DNA of 64,000 nucleotides from a virus. A program made the position numbers and the translations under genes. Of the stretch, positions 335 to 62,292 are shown one piece after another. The stretch is taken from IMG/VR virus record IMGVR_UViG_3300017963_000239, positions 17,880 through 81,879 of that record. The stretch is one strand, 5' to 3'. The notes below the pieces were generated by a model, which saw only the letters and a program-made list of their open reading frames with translations, did no database searches and was not told the origin of the DNA. Numbering within the stretch: position 1 is the first letter of the stretch; every line of letters starts with the position of its first letter.

Positions 335-375
335 GTGGTCGTAGCTCAATCGGTAGAGCGTCTGGATGTGGCCCA
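335..375 (+). pseudogene. 5' fragment of disrupted resident tRNA-His(GTG)
   Basis: GTGGTCG-TAGCTCAATCGGTAGAGC-G-TCTGG-ATGTGGC, then breaks off; matching 3' piece at 884-910. Confidence 0.8.
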
Positions 376-395
376 AAAGTGTTAGGCTCACAACC

Positions 396-824
396 ATGCC
401 AGCGAAGACCAAGAAGTGTGGGAAGTGCCAGAAGCGCAAGCCTGTGGATCAGTTTTACTGGAAGGACAAGGCGCGGGGGACGAGGCATTCGTACTGCAGG
501 GCGTGTTTCGCCGCGCGCCACAAGACTTACTACCAGGAGAACAAGCAGTACTACTTGGAGAAGAAGGCGCGCTGCAAGCAGAGGCTCCGCGAGTATGTGA
601 ACGAACTGAAGCGCGCGCCGTGTACGGACTGTGGCCGGACGTACCCGCCCTACGTGATGGACTTTGATCACTTGAATGGGGAGGAGAAGGGGGGCCTCGT
701 GGCGCATTTGGTGGCGCAGGGGCAGGTTCGGAGAGCCAAAGAAGAGATAGCTAAGTGCGAGCTGGTATGCGCCAACTGTCACAGGATCAGAACGCACGAA
801 AGACGTATGGAGGTCGTAGCCTAA
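396..824 (+). CDS. HNH endonuclease with Zn-finger motifs (His cassette)
   Basis: CxxC motifs, DFDHL...KCELVCANCHRIRT; stop codon lies within the following tRNA-His. Confidence 0.85.
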   Translation: MPAKTKKCGKCQKRKPVDQFYWKDKARGTRHSYCRACFAARHKTYYQENKQYYLEKKARCKQRLREYVNELKRAPCTDCGRTYPPYVMDFDHLNGEEKGGLVAHLVAQGQVRRAKEEIAKCELVCANCHRIRTHERRMEVVA

Positions 825-881
825 CGGTTAAGGCACAGGATTGTGGCTCCTGGTATGCCGGTTCGATTCCGGTCGATCTCC
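809..881 (+). tRNA. tRNA-His(GTG), replacement copy
   Basis: G-1:C73; GAGGTCG/CGATCTC acceptor; CAGGA-TTGTGGC-TCCTG. Confidence 0.9.
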
Positions 882-883
882 CC

Positions 884-910
884 GGTGGTCGAGTCCGCTC
901 GGTCACCCCA
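884..910 (+). pseudogene. 3' fragment (T arm, acceptor strand, CCA) of resident tRNA-His
   Basis: GGTGG-TCGAGT-CCGCT-CGGTCAC-C-CCA; CGGTCAC pairs with GTGGTCG at 335. Confidence 0.75.
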
Positions 911-993
911 CTACGCCCCTGGAGCCGGGTACTCCGGCGGGGCCAACAAGGAGAAGAAGAGAGACAAGGGTGTGGCAACCCAGGCAGGTAGCC

Positions 994-2151
994 ATGAACA
1001 AGGTACACGTGAACGTCGGAACCATCGGACACATCGACCATGGGAAGACGACCCTCACCGCGGCGATCACCAAGGTGATGGCGGAGCTTCACGGTGGGAA
1101 GGTGGTCCCCTTCAACAAGATCGACAACGCACCGGAAGAGCAGAAGCGCGGCGTGACCATCAACACGTCGCACGTGGAGTACGAGTCGGCGACGCGGCAC
1201 TACGCGCACGTCGACTGTCCGGGGCACGCTGACTACATCAAGAACATGATCACCGGTGCGGCCCAGATGGACGGCGCGGTGCTTCTGGTCGATGGGTCGC
1301 AGGGTCCGCAGGTGCAGACCAAGGAGCACATCCTGCTTGCGAAGCAGGTGGGTGTGGAGAGGATGGTGGTGTTCATCAACAAGGTGGACATCGCAGACCC
1401 CGAGCTGCTGGAGTTGGTCGCCTTGGAGACGGCCGAGCATCTGGAGGCGCAGGGATACGAGGACTCTCCGGTGGTCCAGGGCTCCGCTCTGAAGGCTCTG
1501 GAGGGCTCTGAGACGGGCTGCATCGTCGAGCTGGTCGAAGCCATGGACAGGCACTTCCCGGACCCTGTGAGGGACTTCGAGGCGCCTTTCATGCTGCCTA
1601 TCGAGGGAGTCCACACCATCGAAGGCCGCGGCACTGTGGTCACCGGTCGTGTGGAGCGTGGTGTGTTGCCTCTCGGGGCGACGGTCGAGATCATCGGTCT
1701 GGTGGACGAGGACTCCAAGCCTCGCCAGGTCGTGGTCACGGGCATCCAGATGTTCCACAAGGACCAACCCGAAGCGCGGGCCGGAGAGAACTGTGGCCTG
1801 TTGCTGCGCGGTGTTCGTCGGGACGAGGTGGTTCGGGGTCAGGTGCTCATCGTGCCGGGCTCCGTGCGGTCTCACATGAAGGCGAAGGCCGAGCTGTTCG
1901 TGTTGTCGAAGGAGGACGGGGGTCGGCACACTCCGATCTTCAAGGGCTACCGCCCACAGTTCTTCTTCGGCACGACCAACGTCACGGGCACCGTGGCGGA
2001 CATCGGCGAGCTGGACTTGGTCAAGCCTGGCGAGCACGCCGAAGTAGCGCTGGAGTTGCAGAAGCCTGTCGGCATGGAAGCTGGCATGCGATTCGCTGTT
2101 CGTGAGAGCAGCAAGACCGTCGCTGCAGGTGTGGTCCTCAGCGTCACGTAG
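994..2151 (+). CDS. tuf: Elongation factor Tu
   Basis: [61 protein letters not shown]. Confidence 0.95.
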
Positions 2152-2183
2152 AACGGGCAGGCCGGTCCCGCAAACCGGCCATT

Positions 2184-59815: not shown

Positions 59816-60241
59816 ATGGCCGAAGAGCGCGTAGAACAGGACGAGAAGTGGCCTTCCATCTGGGGGCGCAGCGAGCCCGAGCTGAACGAGGGCGGTGACT
59901 TCAAGCGGCTGGCAGGTCTCGACTACGAGCCTCTGCACGAGGCGAAGGTCGGGGAGATCATTCTGAAGCAGATGGGCGGCGGCGGGCGCATCATGGCGAT
60001 GCTCGGTGCGCGCAAGTTCCTGATGCTTCCGAAGGGTGTGGCCATCGGCTGGCCGAGCCGGCATCGGTCGAAGGGCAACTACGTGGAGATCACGCTGCGG
60101 CCGGACGACACCTACACGATGATCTTCTTCAATGTCTCCCCCAAATTTGGGAAGAAGAAGGTCAAGTCATACGACGGCATCTATGCCGATCAGCTCGTGC
60201 CCGTTTTTGAGAAGCAAACGGGTTACTACTTGAGACTTTGA
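59816..60241 (+). CDS. Hypothetical protein (FKRLAG motif)
   Basis: ORF; DDTY.M.F...IYADQL...FE..TG. Confidence 0.7.
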   Translation: MAEERVEQDEKWPSIWGRSEPELNEGGDFKRLAGLDYEPLHEAKVGEIILKQMGGGGRIMAMLGARKFLMLPKGVAIGWPSRHRSKGNYVEITLRPDDTYTMIFFNVSPKFGKKKVKSYDGIYADQLVPVFEKQTGYYLRL

Positions 60242-60387
60242 TCGTCTCTGGACGGTTGGAAAGAATGGCCGATGATCGGTAAGGTGGTCGGTCCGACAGA
60301 TTGAAAGCAGATCGTGAAGGGCGTGTTCTTCGGAACGCGCCCTTTGCGTTGTTGTGAGTACACCGGGCGTGAGGTAGAGTTGGGTGC

Positions 60388-60849
60388 ATGCCGGAGCCCC
60401 GATTCGAGATCCCTGCAGGTGCGATCGACGGCGTGAACGTCACGTTCGTGACCTCTCAGCCGTACCGGCCCGGTTCGACGGCGGTGTTCCTGAACGGGCA
60501 GCTCAAGACGCAGGCGTTGGACGACGGCTGGGCGGAGACGGACCCGGCGGGTGGGGTGGTGACGCTGAACGAGGCGCCGCGCGGCTCGCCGGGCTGCCCG
60601 GACGTTGTTCAGATCTTCTACATCGACACCAGCCCCGTGCTGCCCGAGACGGTGGTCGACACGCGCCTTGTGGGGGTTATCAGGGCGGTGGGTGCCTTGG
60701 AGGCTGAAATCGTCTCTACGGGGCTGCTAGGGGGCGTAGTGGACGATTCTGAGGTGGGTCTGCAGGCTGAGGTCTTGGATGTAGACCGGCTGCGCGGGGT
60801 AGTGCAGGATGTGGAAGCTCTGCAGGGCGAGATCATAGGGGTGTGCTGA
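60388..60849 (+). CDS. Putative virion protein
   Basis: P.G.IDG.N..F....VFLNG motif. Confidence 0.6.
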   Translation: MPEPRFEIPAGAIDGVNVTFVTSQPYRPGSTAVFLNGQLKTQALDDGWAETDPAGGVVTLNEAPRGSPGCPDVVQIFYIDTSPVLPETVVDTRLVGVIRAVGALEAEIVSTGLLGGVVDDSEVGLQAEVLDVDRLRGVVQDVEALQGEIIGVC

Positions 60850-61238
60850 TGCCGCTACAGCCAGGAATCACTCAACCGAAGAACACCATCCGGATGCTCC
60901 GTGGGACGAACAAGACCTTCCTGCTGTCGGTGACGGACGAGGAAGGTGAGCGGGTGGACCTTGCGGGGGCGCGCATCATCTTCTCGGTGAAGCGTGCGCT
61001 CGATGACGAGCACACCGTCATCCAGAAGGACAGCCAGAAGGGGGCGGCTCAGGTGGAGATTCTGACCCCCACCAAGGGGGGCCAAGCCAACATCTATCTC
61101 GCGCCTTCCGACACCAACACGCTCGACGTGCGCGAGTACGTGTTCGACGTCTGGGCCGTGCTGTCGAGTGGGAAGCGGTATGCCGTCATCCCGCCGAGCA
61201 TCTTGGAGCTGGAAGCGGGAGTGACTGTGATCACCTGA
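60849..61238 (+). CDS. Ig/BppU-like virion protein
   Basis: G.....VDL.G..I.F.VK...L...DT..L....Y..DV. Confidence 0.6.
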   Translation: MPLQPGITQPKNTIRMLRGTNKTFLLSVTDEEGERVDLAGARIIFSVKRALDDEHTVIQKDSQKGAAQVEILTPTKGGQANIYLAPSDTNTLDVREYVFDVWAVLSSGKRYAVIPPSILELEAGVTVIT

Positions 61239-61272
61239 TGCGTCCACATGGACGCATTGAGAGGAACGACCG

Positions 61273-61398
61273 ATGCCCACAAGTCCGCGATTGAATTGGC
61301 CTACTCCGGACGACTGCAAGTCGAGCTGTGAGAAGGGGAGTAGCGATCGGGACCACTGGAAGGAGCACTTCCTTGGTCTACTCAGGGAGGCTAGCTAG
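61273..61398 (+). pseudogene. Displaced 5' end (MPTSPRLNWP) fused to an eroded endonuclease-like remnant
   Basis: First 10 codons encode the same peptide as 61402 with different codons. Confidence 0.75.
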
Positions 61399-61401
61399 CA
61401 A

Positions 61402-62292
61402 ATGCCCACATCTCCAAGGCTAAACTGGCCCTATCCGGGCCAGTATTCGGATCCCTGGTGGCAGAAGTTCAAGTCCTTCGTCGAAGCGGTGGACGCTAGC
61501 TTCTACACCACGCGCGAGGACAAGAACTTCGTGCTGTTCGGGGGAGGAACCGTCTCCTTCAACTCCACCACGGGCGTGCTGTCGTGGACGGACCCGTTGG
61601 AGGGGGTGGCGGCCACGACGGGCTACCGCTGGAACATTCCGAACCCAACTTCGGGCGGCAGCGTCACGCTGGCGGATGGGGAGTTTTTCTACGTCGAGCT
61701 GACGCGGGCACCTCAGTCGACGCAGAGCCTCGCGGCCCTGAGCGGTTCGAGGATCCCAGTCAGCGACGACGCCTTGGTCATCGCTCAGCGCTTGGGCTCC
61801 GCGGTCATCTTTCGCAACGGGGCCGTCGTTGGGAACGGACAGAGCGTCATTCTGTTCGGCCCTCGCATCTTCACTTCGATCTCCGACGTCGTCGGCATCG
61901 CCGGCCAACAGGACACCGACCAGACGGGTTGGCAGGACAAGGGAGGCTTTCGCTACGACCCCGCGGCTTACTTCCCCGGCGGAGCAGGCATCACGAGAGA
62001 GATCAAGTTCTACGCGATGCTCTGGACGACCGACGACACGACGCCTCTACCTGCGCAGGCTCGGCTCTACAACATCACGGATGGCGCGGAGGTGACGGGC
62101 TCCGAGCTGTCGTCTTCATCGCTCACGCCGGACATGCAGGTTTCGAGCGCGCTTTCGCCAGGCACGGGCAACTTCAAGAGCACGGTGGCCGACTACGCGG
62201 TGCAGCTCAAGCTGGATGACTCGTCGGGTTCGCCGACGCCGAGCGACCGCATCTTCTGCGTGCAGGCGTTCATCAGGACTTCTTGGTCGTAG
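61402..62292 (+). CDS. Putative tail/virion protein
   Basis: ORF in structural region. Confidence 0.7.
   Translation: MPTSPRLNWPYPGQYSDPWWQKFKSFVEAVDASFYTTREDKNFVLFGGGTVSFNSTTGVLSWTDPLEGVAATTGYRWNIPNPTSGGSVTLADGEFFYVELTRAPQSTQSLAALSGSRIPVSDDALVIAQRLGSAVIFRNGAVVGNGQSVILFGPRIFTSISDVVGIAGQQDTDQTGWQDKGGFRYDPAAYFPGGAGITREIKFYAMLWTTDDTTPLPAQARLYNITDGAEVTGSELSSSSLTPDMQVSSALSPGTGNFKSTVADYAVQLKLDDSSGSPTPSDRIFCVQAFIRTSWS

Follow-up and report, generated by a model that had tools for sequence, protein, structure and literature searches.

We find that a large environmental phage carries nuclease genes within its own tRNA genes and within the beginning of a tail gene. That these cassettes are insertions into resident genes, with the intact neighbouring copy as cargo, is supported by three loci at which a complete tRNA has the halves of an old one on either side. 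In the 64,000-nucleotide stretch of DNA analysed here (the window; all features are on the plus strand unless stated otherwise), the cassettes are probably homing endonuclease genes of the free-standing type, physically linked in each case to a functional but diverged version of the target gene; this version is likely to be either an entire tRNA or about the first 12 codons of the tail gene. The layout is shared by at least four nuclease families, namely an HNH_3 clade, an EndoVII-like HNH, a large phrog_374 HNH and, probably, a Vsr-like DUF559 enzyme, in agreement with a preliminary description of the same DNA that had seen one design in several families; its observation that broken and intact, diverged gene copies lie beside the nucleases is borne out in part.

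At the His, Ala-GGC and Ala-TGC loci, an HNH gene and a complete tRNA lie inside an older tRNA of matching isotype, one stump of which remains on each side, and both the survival of the two halves and the pairing of their acceptor strands (7/7 at each locus) are as previously described; when joined, the stumps are again called as tRNAs. The old tRNA-His runs through the GTG anticodon loop in its 5' part (335..375; read from the sequence, and by ARAGORN on the join), while its 3' part (884..910) comprises the T arm, the acceptor strand CGGTCAC, which pairs with GTGGTCG, a C and CCA, and ARAGORN calls the join tRNA-His(GTG). Between them lie an EndoVII-like HNH endonuclease gene (396..824; phrog_2255, E 5.7e-33), for which a Pfam search gave no domain match, and a complete tRNA-His(GTG) with an encoded G-1:C73 (809..883; ARAGORN, Rfam 62 bits), inside which the nuclease gene stops. 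At Ala-GGC, the old 5' stump (4162..4193) breaks just before the anticodon, has tRNA-Ala as all seven of its seven best matches and agrees at 28/28 positions with the tRNA-Ala(CGC) at 5462, and the 3' stump (4781..4812; T arm, TAGGTCC, A, CCA) is 87.5% identical to the 3' end of that same tRNA, with strands GGGCCTG and TAGGTCC paired. The clade 1 HNH_3 gene within (4208..4699; Pfam E 4e-7, and alignment) is preceded by an extended -10-like motif, TGCTACACT, and its stop overlaps by 13 nt the complete tRNA-Ala(GGC) (4687..4758; ARAGORN, Rfam), which has G3:U70, an unusual D arm and no encoded CCA. The tRNA-Ala(CGC) at 5462 is intact despite sharing its first 28 nt with the stump, so that either bases nearer the 3' end would be needed for recognition or the enzyme would be held in check. 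At Ala-TGC, the 5' stump (5631..5669) extends through the anticodon loop and the 3' stump (6247..6296; best match the tRNA-Ala(TGC) of relative L007, score 54) from the anticodon loop to CCA; their strands GGGCTCA and TGAGTCC pair with G3:U70 kept, and 62 of the joins tried were called tRNA-Ala(TGC) by ARAGORN. They enclose a short HNH_3 gene (5699..6088; Pfam E 8.8e-12) whose stop lies 15 nt into a complete diverged tRNA-Ala(TGC) (6074..6146; ARAGORN, Rfam).

The Ile, Leu-CAA, Pro-GGG and Ser-TGA loci have a single stump, adjoining a same-isotype tRNA. The old tRNA-Ile(GAT) (3019..3087) is intact to the variable loop with the T arm broken; at 35.9 bits it passes the Rfam tRNA threshold, has a GAT anticodon and best matches the tRNA-Ile(GAT) of L003, so that the target named in the preliminary description stands. 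It is followed by a complete diverged tRNA-Ile(GAT) (3094..3167; ARAGORN) and an HNH_3 endonuclease with a C-terminal helix-turn-helix (3169..3744; Pfam HNH_3 E 3.5e-5, at 23.8 bits slightly below the Pfam cut-off of 24.8 bits; Sigma70_r4_2). The Pro target is likewise upheld: most best matches of the 5' stump (22276..22308) are tRNA-Pro, aligned from base 1, and its CGGGATG can pair without a mismatch with the 3' strand in the present tRNA-Pro(GGG) (22832..22908; ARAGORN, comparison with L007), which the stop of a clade 1 HNH_3 gene (22332..22841; Pfam E 6.5e-13) overlaps by 10 nt. Judged from its sequence, this tRNA is probably a chimera of a new 5' part and a resident-like 3' end with CCA. 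At Leu, six of the seven best matches of the degenerate 5' stump (about 20004..20040) are tRNA-Leu, as had been proposed, whereas its anticodon loop is TAA-like and not CAA; a complete tRNA-Leu(CAA) (20046..20132; ARAGORN, Rfam) and a clade 1 HNH_3 gene (20134..20682; Pfam E 1.3e-8, and alignment) follow, the HNH motif of the latter being partly lost with replacement of its last His. The nuclease-free relic described at Ser is visible by eye as a 5' stump (26691..26728) directly before tRNA-Ser(TGA) (26731-26815).

The same arrangement is found at the starts of two protein genes, both previously noted. The old first 12 codons of a baseplate wedge gene (42496..42531), 33/36 identical to the uninterrupted allele of the relative L029, now form a 14-codon ORF that ends just past the GTG start codon of a large HNH endonuclease gene (42533..43567; phrog_374 and phrog_3377, E about 1e-91), which in turn stops inside the recoded start (26/36 identical to L029) of the wedge gene itself (43548..45818; phrog_219). 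The two starts (42496-42531 and 43548-43583) share 11/12 residues and differ at 10/36 bases, an alignment score reached by 0/2000 shuffles. Recoding of 7/12 codons does not exceed the background of synonymous change that separates the window from L029, in which 0.3-0.6 of the codons for identical residues differ. It is thus the mark of a diverged donor and need not mean selection for resistance. The second case, without a nuclease, consists of the old first 12 codons of a gene (61273..61309), 92 nt, and an intact gene (61402..62292) whose first 10 residues repeat them with synonymous changes (score reached by 4/2000 shuffles); in both cases the changes are mostly synonymous.

Other proposed targets are ambiguous or fail. 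Beside the complete tmRNA (18508..18856; tag ANDNSTPLAAKAA; Rfam 92 bits, ARAGORN) and a DUF559 (Vsr-like) endonuclease with zinc ribbons (18907..19518; Pfam E 3.3e-8) lies an orphan piece of T arm, acceptor and CCA (19520..19546). By its sequence it is clearly tRNA-derived, while an origin from the tmRNA, as proposed, or from a tRNA-Ala is ambiguous, the match to the tRNA-Ala(CGC) 3' end (26/27) being closer than that to the tmRNA 3' end (22/24). A nuclease does adjoin tRNA-Arg(CCG) (13701-13774), the clade 1 HNH_3 gene at 13192..13710 (Pfam E 6e-10) stopping within it, but the supposed stump (13134..13155) is just a generic 20-nt D arm to which no isotype can be assigned. The relic reported at Arg-ACG is an orphan tRNA 5' piece (12957..12983), without a nuclease and just upstream of tRNA-Arg(ACG) (13002-13076), that types as Thr or Arg. 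No stump of an old tRNA was seen at the Glu locus, which had been called a weak relic. The tape-measure duplication (33328/34158) is not upheld, since 91/2000 shuffles score as well and the pairing given is not the best local alignment. The plus-strand ORF 33328-34161 was rejected as a tape-measure nuclease; a NUMOD4 + HNH_3 + HTH endonuclease (Pfam) is encoded on the minus strand at 33340..34134, just upstream of the tape measure gene.

Pfam identifies HNH_3 in six ORFs of the window and DUF559 in one, and PHROG assigns the ORFs 366-824 (His) and 42533-43567 (baseplate) to HNH families. Five HNH_3 genes are paralogues with a common C-terminal GCRC...CR motif. Homologues of this clade (42-48% identity) lie within group I introns interrupting tRNA genes at the anticodon loop in other phages (L032-L036, L043 and L065), so the clade does home into that part of tRNA genes. 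In the window, as previously stated, there is no group I intron core, either by Rfam at E<=10 or, with filters off, by our own covariance model, which was trained on intron cores beside homologous HNH genes and recovers untrained introns at 93 bits.

We propose that in a mixed infection the nuclease would cut the ordinary allele of a cassette-free genome, around the anticodon arm of a tRNA gene for the HNH_3 clade and near codon 12 for the baseplate gene, and that repair of the break would copy in the nuclease gene with its linked spare. The recipient's own sequence up to the cut would remain as a stump, and stumps would be kept on both sides if both junctions fell at the break. No intron or intein would be needed, because the imported copy would preserve function; stump and flank, once formed, could provide homology arms for later homing. 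Such cassettes would be expected to combine specific cleavage with a resistant imported copy and super-Mendelian spread, and selection may keep the spare.

Uninterrupted sites are found in relatives, which are distant (EF-Tu 74-77% identical to that of the window phage). L029 has a single baseplate gene start and no nuclease there, and is collinear with the window except for the 1016-nt insertion (42532-43547) and the duplicated 36-nt gene start; in L007, tmRNA, tRNA-Leu(CAA) and tRNA-Pro(GGG) are intact, nuclease-free and ordered as in the window, and the tRNA-Pro resembles the window's Pro stump. Cassette-free alleles of these loci thus exist in relatives, as predicted, whereas a search for strains of the window phage itself that lack the cassette at any tRNA locus gave none; in X2, a second and independent sample, the cassettes are identical. 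The order of 5' stump, HNH gene and same-isotype tRNA, anticipated in other phages, recurs in the unrelated L044 (Arg) and L031 (Pro), but many HNH-tRNA units of relatives are stump-free (L003, L007, L037, L051, L060, L088), and in L009 the piece after HNH and tRNA-Trp resembles tRNA-Met, an isotype mismatch. These exceptions, together with a stump layout that differs between loci (both sides, 5' only or 3' only), lend some weight to a rather unlikely alternative, that the stumps are accidental scars, created when ordinary free-standing endonuclease genes next to a tRNA home into a diverged genome that offers little flanking homology and illegitimate joining at one or both junctions leaves partial duplicates. 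Nothing would then be "paid for", a similarly modest chance attaching to the view that the adjacent tRNA is just co-converted and phage tRNAs are dispensable; the preliminary description did overstate their essentiality. SegB of phage T4 indeed cuts tRNA genes and co-converts flanking ones (PMC2330249), and also triggers segmental rearrangements of tRNA loci (PMC13096335). Against mere scars, there can be little doubt that the baseplate wedge gene is essential, and what its cassette brings is precisely the start that was lost, complete with a ribosome site; moreover, same-isotype stump and tRNA neighbours occur seven times in one genome (His, Ile, Ala twice, Leu, Pro, Ser). Both readings share the same mechanics and part chiefly over whether the spare is maintained by selection.

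That the spare pre-existed, a nuclease gene having landed in one of two redundant tandem tRNAs, which then decayed, is improbable. In relatives, tandem tRNAs with the same anticodon are frequent (Arg-ACG, Asn and Ile-GAT in L003; Pro-CGG in L008; Leu-GAG in L007 and L011), and such an origin would fit Ile, Leu, Pro, Arg and Ser, where one stump is left. It is excluded for the nested His, Ala-GGC and Ala-TGC loci, because a pre-existing tandem copy cannot lie inside a broken one, and it leaves the duplicated gene starts unexplained. Moreover, nuclease ORFs run 10-15 nt into the tRNA at five loci of the window (10-22 nt in L031, L037, L088, L003, L008 and L009), and nuclease and tRNA are therefore one unit; the imported tRNAs are also far from the stumps (19/31 to 30/40 identical), while a stump can match a resident paralogue exactly.

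Retention of the stumps for a function, for example as half-tRNAs that decoy anticodon nucleases of the host, or to provide the nuclease gene with processing signals or promoters, we regard as very improbable. There are host defences that cleave tRNAs (PMC13096335), the Ala-GGC stump shows no decay, and the old baseplate ORF, ending at the nuclease start, could drive its translation by coupling; but stumps vary in length and side, several have degenerated (Leu, Arg, and Ile in its T arm), and an undecayed stump equally fits a recent insertion or the recipient's own sequence re-used at each homing event. Least credible is that the halves are exons from which an unrecognised ribozyme or protein enzyme removes the insert to give a second working tRNA: nucleases of the same clade are intron-borne in tRNA anticodon loops of other phages, and joining the halves does give a tRNA fold at His and Ala-TGC, but neither Rfam at E<=10 nor our own model finds an intron core. 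Moreover, no part of the anticodon survives in the Ala-GGC halves, nor does the 3' strand of its stem; the variable region is absent from the His halves; at Ala-TGC the two halves overlap; the position of the break is not constant between loci; and the protein-gene stumps end in stop codons.

Insertion with a cargo copy and without an intron, as the preliminary description had it, is therefore supported, whereas its label of a new system is too strong, because the accepted model of intronless homing already pairs a free-standing homing endonuclease with a resistant target allele. SegB of the T4 tRNA cluster is such an endonuclease, accompanied by its resistant target allele (PMC2330249). Gene-end replacement in fungal mitochondria is likewise known kin. 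The cassettes of homing endonuclease and linked copy are of the same kind as T4 SegB with its co-converted flank, and the element they add is that the gene hit is left as stumps around the cassette.

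The broken genes of this phage are best accounted for by free-standing homing endonucleases linked to a diverged copy of their own target, for which we infer cleavage of the resident allele, resistance of the linked copy and biased inheritance. The preliminary description had proposed that the nucleases break essential genes and carry recoded replacements with neither intron nor integrase; its observations are confirmed in part and its interpretation is partly supported. We call the leftover piece of a broken old gene a stump, the complete diverged copy linked to the nuclease a spare, and the nuclease with its spare a cassette.

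The source contig in IMG/VR is 81.9 kb long, with an estimated completeness of ~54%, and the window (bases 17880-81879) has a G+C content of ~61%. Megablast with 20 kb as the query returned no close match among GenBank phages. The window holds 37 tRNA genes and a tmRNA gene (tRNA and tmRNA genes together number 50 on the whole contig) and also encodes EF-Tu, a tubulin-like protein and a contractile-tail module. Relatives of the EF-Tu (994-2151), 48-77% identical, lie in the middle of a tRNA array on 26 IMG/VR contigs, many of them 190-620 kb long with large tRNA arrays and some (L004, L007, L009, L011) with a gene order partly as in the window. Since these phages have almost no other array genes in common with the window, they are distant relatives. 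The tubulin-like protein (23323-25596) belongs to the Tubulin/FtsZ family (Pfam Tubulin, E 1e-14), which recalls jumbo phages able to assemble a spindle or a compartment resembling a nucleus. The search of IMG/VR gave no close relative of the gene at 61402, and for the gene at 6740 a metagenome search gave a single 1.8-kb contig at 52% identity, of no use for comparison.

Nuclease genes of several families are present, as had been described. Pfam identifies HNH_3 endonuclease ORFs at 3169-3744, 4208-4699, 5699-6088, 13192-13710, 20134-20682 and 22332-22841 and a DUF559 (Vsr-like) endonuclease at 18907-19518, for which IMG/VR yielded two partial matches only, while PHROGs assigns 396-824 to an HNH/EndoVII family and 42533-43567 to large HNH families (E ~1e-91). 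The enzymes at Ala-GGC, Arg-CCG, Leu-CAA and Pro-GGG, together with the shorter one at Ala-TGC, are paralogues with a common C-terminal GCRC...CR motif. All nuclease ORFs have their own starts and stops, and each cassette contains a nuclease ORF only, with no tyrosine or serine recombinase in the element, so that the reported lack of an integrase stands. A further protein of 416 aa, of the HNH_5 type (20994-22244), has in the distant relative L007 a homologue (19478-20035) of ~185 aa that matches both of its ends only; the extra middle part, with the LAGLIDADG-like motif LAGMFDGEGW, suggests an intein having its own homing endonuclease.

Short-word BLAST with the intact tRNAs masked located orphan tRNA pieces directly beside the nucleases. 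At His, an old 5' part comprising the acceptor strand, D arm and GTG anticodon loop (335-375) is followed by the HNH gene, a complete tRNA-His with an encoded G-1:C73 (809-883), and the old 3' part with T arm, acceptor strand and CCA (884-910). The Ala-GGC 5' stump starts at 4162 and ends just 5' of the anticodon, its matching 3' end lying at 4781-4812; positions 4162-4189 are identical (28/28) to the start of the resident tRNA-Ala(CGC), which is intact although its first 28 nt are those of the stump, a caveat to an account based on target cutting. Both Ala-TGC stumps (5631-5669 and 6247-6296) keep the TTGCAA loop, and the top match of the 3' piece is the tRNA-Ala(TGC) of L007. The survival of both halves with pairing acceptor strands at these three loci holds, the strands pairing 7/7 in each case, and G3:U70 is retained in both Ala loci. 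Split tRNAs were not called by ARAGORN even with long introns permitted; when the halves were joined by script, the program called a tRNA from first to last base, as His(GTG) and, in 62 joins, as Ala(TGC). The Ala-GGC halves lack an anticodon, and the break points do not fall at one common site across loci. Because the intact tRNA is nested between the halves, it arrived together with the nuclease, and a pre-existing tandem copy cannot yield this order at His, Ala-GGC and Ala-TGC.

The remaining tRNA loci show varied layouts. Three quarters of a tRNA-Ile(GAT) (3019-3087; 35.9 bits in Rfam) precede a diverged tRNA-Ile(GAT) and then the nuclease; a degenerate Leu-type 5' piece is likewise followed by tRNA-Leu(CAA) and then the nuclease, and at Pro-GGG a 5' stump is followed by nuclease and tRNA in that order. 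The CGGGATG of the Pro stump forms a perfect pairing with the present tRNA's 3' strand, for which the present 5' strand requires a G-U pair, and the 3' end of this tRNA is similar to that of the L007 tRNA-Pro(GGG); considering both, the present gene is probably chimeric, its 5' part imported and its 3' part resident. At Ser-TGA there is a 38-nt 5' stump and no nuclease. The pieces at the two loci described as Arg are genuine tRNA debris, to which no isotype can be assigned. The tmRNA gene had also been named as a target: a piece does follow the nuclease there (19520-19546), and it is a better match to the 3' end of tRNA-Ala(CGC) (26/27 identical) than to tmRNA (22/24). A CCA is encoded in 4/4 old 3' pieces and in none of the four nested or adjacent new genes, which is only a hint of old and new since about half of all tRNAs here encode CCA. 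Global identity of the stumps to the best other tRNAs was too noisy and was rejected as a measure. Apart from these loci, a tRNA-like element directly behind tRNA-Ser(CGA) (29243-29330) has paired acceptor strands, a CCA and an odd interior, and scores 34.5 bits, below threshold, with the Rfam tRNA-Sec model, and the minus strand of 10049-10651 bears head-to-tail tRNA-like genes whose anticodons are unusual (ATA, AAT) or whose anticodon loops are malformed.

The first 12 codons of the baseplate wedge gene are present twice, at 42496 and 43548, with 11/12 residues the same and 10/36 bases different, an alignment score reached by 0/2000 shuffles. A 19-kb contig of ~76% DNA identity (L029) is collinear with the window apart from having a single gene start and no nuclease, so the window has a 1016-nt insertion and a 36-nt duplication; since the upstream start copy is identical to L029 at 33/36 positions and the downstream copy at 26/36, the upstream copy is resident and the downstream copy imported. 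The old start is now a 14-codon ORF ending just past the GTG start codon of the nuclease, whose stop falls within the new gene start. Synonymous change in the new start is close to the general divergence between the window and L029, which indicates a diverged donor and not special recoding; of the claim for a baseplate target with a recoded replacement, the duplicated start is borne out and special recoding is not. Shortly 3' of the imported start, which is more diverged, 95 nt of the gene (43633-43727) are ~96% identical to L029 against a background of ~75%, and this patch may mark the limit of a conversion tract or be an element conserved at the nucleotide level; the rise in divergence is, as the mark of a co-conversion tract in this gene, suggestive only. 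The pair at 61273/61402 has a baseplate-like duplicated start without a nuclease (score reached by 4/2000 shuffles), which fits a cassette that later lost its nuclease. The tape-measure gene, described as another case, is not upheld: its duplication is not significant in the shuffle test, and the nuclease beside it is not a plus-strand ORF but a NUMOD4 and HNH_3 ORF on the minus strand (33340-34134; Pfam).

Splicing would be the familiar way for such insertions to be tolerated, and its absence had been claimed. Rfam finds neither RF00028 nor any other intron in window positions 1-31000 at E<=10, and R1, our own covariance model of group I intron cores beside homologous HNH genes, finds no group I core above 8 bits anywhere in the window with filters off, both searches thus agreeing with the claim. 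R1 was built from four intron cores, and L035 and L036, left out of training, were found at 93 bits; as positive controls, Rfam finds L065, L085 and L034, and R1 finds L032-L036 and L043. The clade to which the nucleases belong nevertheless includes intron-borne members. An alignment of five HNH_3 paralogues recovered 80 loci from IMG/VR, ~35 with tRNA genes within 1.5 kb, and in five (L032, L033, L034, L043, L065) the homologous nuclease separates the 5' and 3' parts of a single tRNA interrupted in its anticodon loop, with a conserved, covarying group I core 3' of the nuclease ORF; the same core occurs in L035 and L036, and group I introns are confirmed by Rfam for L065 and L085 as well as for a second intron of L034. 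With homologues intron-borne in anticodon loops, the HNH_3 nucleases of the window are members of a clade homing into the anticodon region of tRNA genes, here with a spare tRNA and no ribozyme. The HNH_3-carrying introns (~1450-2200 in L032-L036, L043, L065 and L085) split the anticodon loops of Arg-TCT, Lys-TTT and Met-CAT in unrelated phages. At the gathering score Rfam misses those of L032, L033 and L043 and the first of L034, all found by R1. Within a near-identical phage family, a comparison of L036 and L040 with L038, L039, L041 and L042 shows the tRNA-Tyr beside the intron-borne HNH gene either intact or as its 3' half only (~1406-1446), and a neighbouring tRNA is Val-TAC in some members (of L036 and L038-L042) and Lys-TTT in others.

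The arrangement of a tRNA half, an HNH gene and a tRNA of the same isotype, predicted to occur elsewhere, was found in full in two unrelated phages: in L044 an Arg-like stump of 28 nt precedes HNH and tRNA-Arg(TCT), and in L031 a Pro stump precedes HNH and tRNA-Pro(TGG). The rule is not a strict one, as many HNH-tRNA units of relatives are without a stump, and the piece behind HNH and tRNA-Trp in L009 resembles tRNA-Met. Further nuclease-tRNA units lie upstream of the window on the source contig (5122-7148 and 16274-16872); there, tRNA-Arg(CCT) is entered by an HNH_3 gene of clade 1, and tRNA-Tyr and tRNA-Lys(CTT) contain the ends of His-type HNH genes. The window's ORFs extend ~10-15 nt into the tRNA at His (809-824), Ala-GGC (4687-4699), Ala-TGC (6074-6088), Arg-CCG (13701-13710) and Pro-GGG (22832-22841), and those of L031, L037, L088, L003, L008 and L009 do so by 10-22 nt. 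As an ORF ending inside a tRNA would have its stop codon stripped from the message by an RNase P cut at the tRNA 5' end, we speculate, from the layout, that this might restrict nuclease synthesis or feed the phage's own tmRNA. A candidate extended -10-like motif was recognized by eye between stump and start codon, as TGCTAnnCT at Ala-GGC, Arg-CCG, Pro and L031 and as TGTATAAT in L044. Separately, a promoter-like motif beside tRNA genes (11763-11790, 26909-26937 and ~14008-14040) consists of TTGACAATCA, ~10 nt containing GCAGCCTG or a close variant, and a -10-like hexamer.

Cassette-free alleles, expected in relatives, were found for the baseplate gene (L029) and for tmRNA, Leu-CAA and Pro-GGG (in L007, which is distant), and none for His, Ile or Ala. 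The same cassettes recur, with 0-3 differences, in X2, an independent sample of seawater, and related wetland strains in two further samples (X3, X4) also have the Ala-GGC cassette; the uncovered parts in the latter two are not interpretable. Among contigs of four DNA runs, no clean uninterrupted site or cassette-free strain was seen. Short joints across the cassettes were rejected as cassette-free alleles, deriving from the tRNAs of other organisms.

As a mechanism, we propose that the endonuclease would move jointly with the linked, diverged copy of its target, the recipient's own sequence staying behind as stumps at the break; the varied layouts would reflect double-strand-break repair in which one or both junctions are made right where the DNA was cut, rather than in homology farther away. 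The uninterrupted alleles and intron-borne cousins together show how a selfish nuclease could occupy a gene without splicing, by bringing a substitute, and this would explain the tRNA pieces and odd-looking tRNAs that litter phage tRNA arrays, the turnover of tRNA repertoires between phages and the clustering of nucleases at the starts of structural genes. For annotation, a tRNA stump, an HNH gene and a tRNA of the same isotype may be treated as one mobile unit, and such units offer natural pairs of cut and uncut targets for defining the specificity of many HNH enzymes. More tentatively, and at somewhat less than even confidence, homing endonucleases in general may have a third means of residing in useful genes, alongside introns and inteins, namely to carry a spare. 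On this reading several unrelated phage nuclease families would independently have become fused to a tRNA that resists cleavage or to a gene start in recoded form, and would act as natural cut-and-rescue drives under which the tRNA sets and tail gene starts of phages are constantly overwritten and diversified, with the ORF run-on perhaps tying nuclease expression to tRNA processing.

Among known systems, intronless homing as represented by SegB of phages T4/T6 and by SegF, SegG and MobE (PMC2330249, PMC13096335, PMC2988022) has in common with the window that the nuclease lies between genes and not in an intron. T4 SegB, a free-standing nuclease whose gene belongs to a tRNA cluster, as do those of the nucleases at the tRNA loci here, cuts tRNA genes of phages lacking it and co-converts neighbouring tRNA genes (PMC2330249), and linkage to tRNAs is widespread among its homologues, which also rearrange the tRNAs (PMC13096335); the carrier's allele is assumed to be spared through sequence differences. 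SegB is, however, a GIY-YIG enzyme recognizing the T loop, whereas the window has HNH and Vsr-like enzymes and most of the breaks are near the anticodon arm; T4 crosses result in conversion of the sensitive region, whereas here the hit gene is left as stumps around a cassette with a complete spare nested inside, and the run of the nuclease ORF into the spare tRNA is also unlike SegB. Phages commonly have HEGs close to or within essential genes (PMC10448857), and two papers (PMC5966550, PMC6409571, citing Pope et al. 2014 on cluster M) suggest HNH genes in mycobacteriophage tRNA arrays as drivers of tRNA diversity. The literature searched, which covered few subscription journals, gave no account of phages in which a broken tRNA encloses a nuclease and a spare tRNA. 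The window stands out by how many loci it contains, by its protein-gene cases for which an uninterrupted allele exists and by its connection to relatives carried in introns.

Bacterial examples of group I introns that sit in tRNA anticodon loops and carry homing endonuclease ORFs have been reviewed (PMC3984707). The phage tRNA introns found here (L032-L036, L043, L065) have nucleases of the same HNH_3 clade as the window (42-48% identity) and the same tRNA target region, and likewise divide the gene in two, 5' and 3', but they possess a ribozyme core (RF00028 or R1) and no spare tRNA, while the cassettes have a spare tRNA and no core. Integrase-borne islands and prophages in tRNA or tmRNA genes also break the RNA gene, carry a replacement piece and leave a duplicated fragment; the window differs in having no integrase, stumps that are mostly 5' parts, and a spare that is a whole diverged gene and not an identical 3' end repeat. 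The only 3' piece after a nuclease that could be taken for an island-type end repeat is that of the tmRNA locus, the one closer to tRNA-Ala. With engineered home-and-rescue or cleave-and-rescue drives, which are man-made Cas9 systems in insects, the logic alone is shared, that of cutting an important gene and carrying a recoded, uncuttable copy, so that the cassettes are a natural counterpart by analogy and not by family.

In fungal mitochondria, homing endonuclease insertions supply a foreign gene end that displaces the native end (atp6, rps3), examples reportedly being those of Paquin et al. in 1994 and Sethuraman et al. in 2009. There, as in the window, the nuclease sits in the coding region, the donor end restores the frame and the native end becomes a short pseudogene; a donor-derived end that restores the ORF, with the native end left as a fragment, is present here at the baseplate gene and at 61273/61402. 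The fungal cases replace the 3' end in organelles, whereas in this phage the baseplate and 61402 cases replace the 5' end including the ribosome site and the tRNA cases the whole gene. Stumps around a cassette with a nested spare, and with no intron, would represent a new variant on intronless homing and on fungal gene-end replacement.
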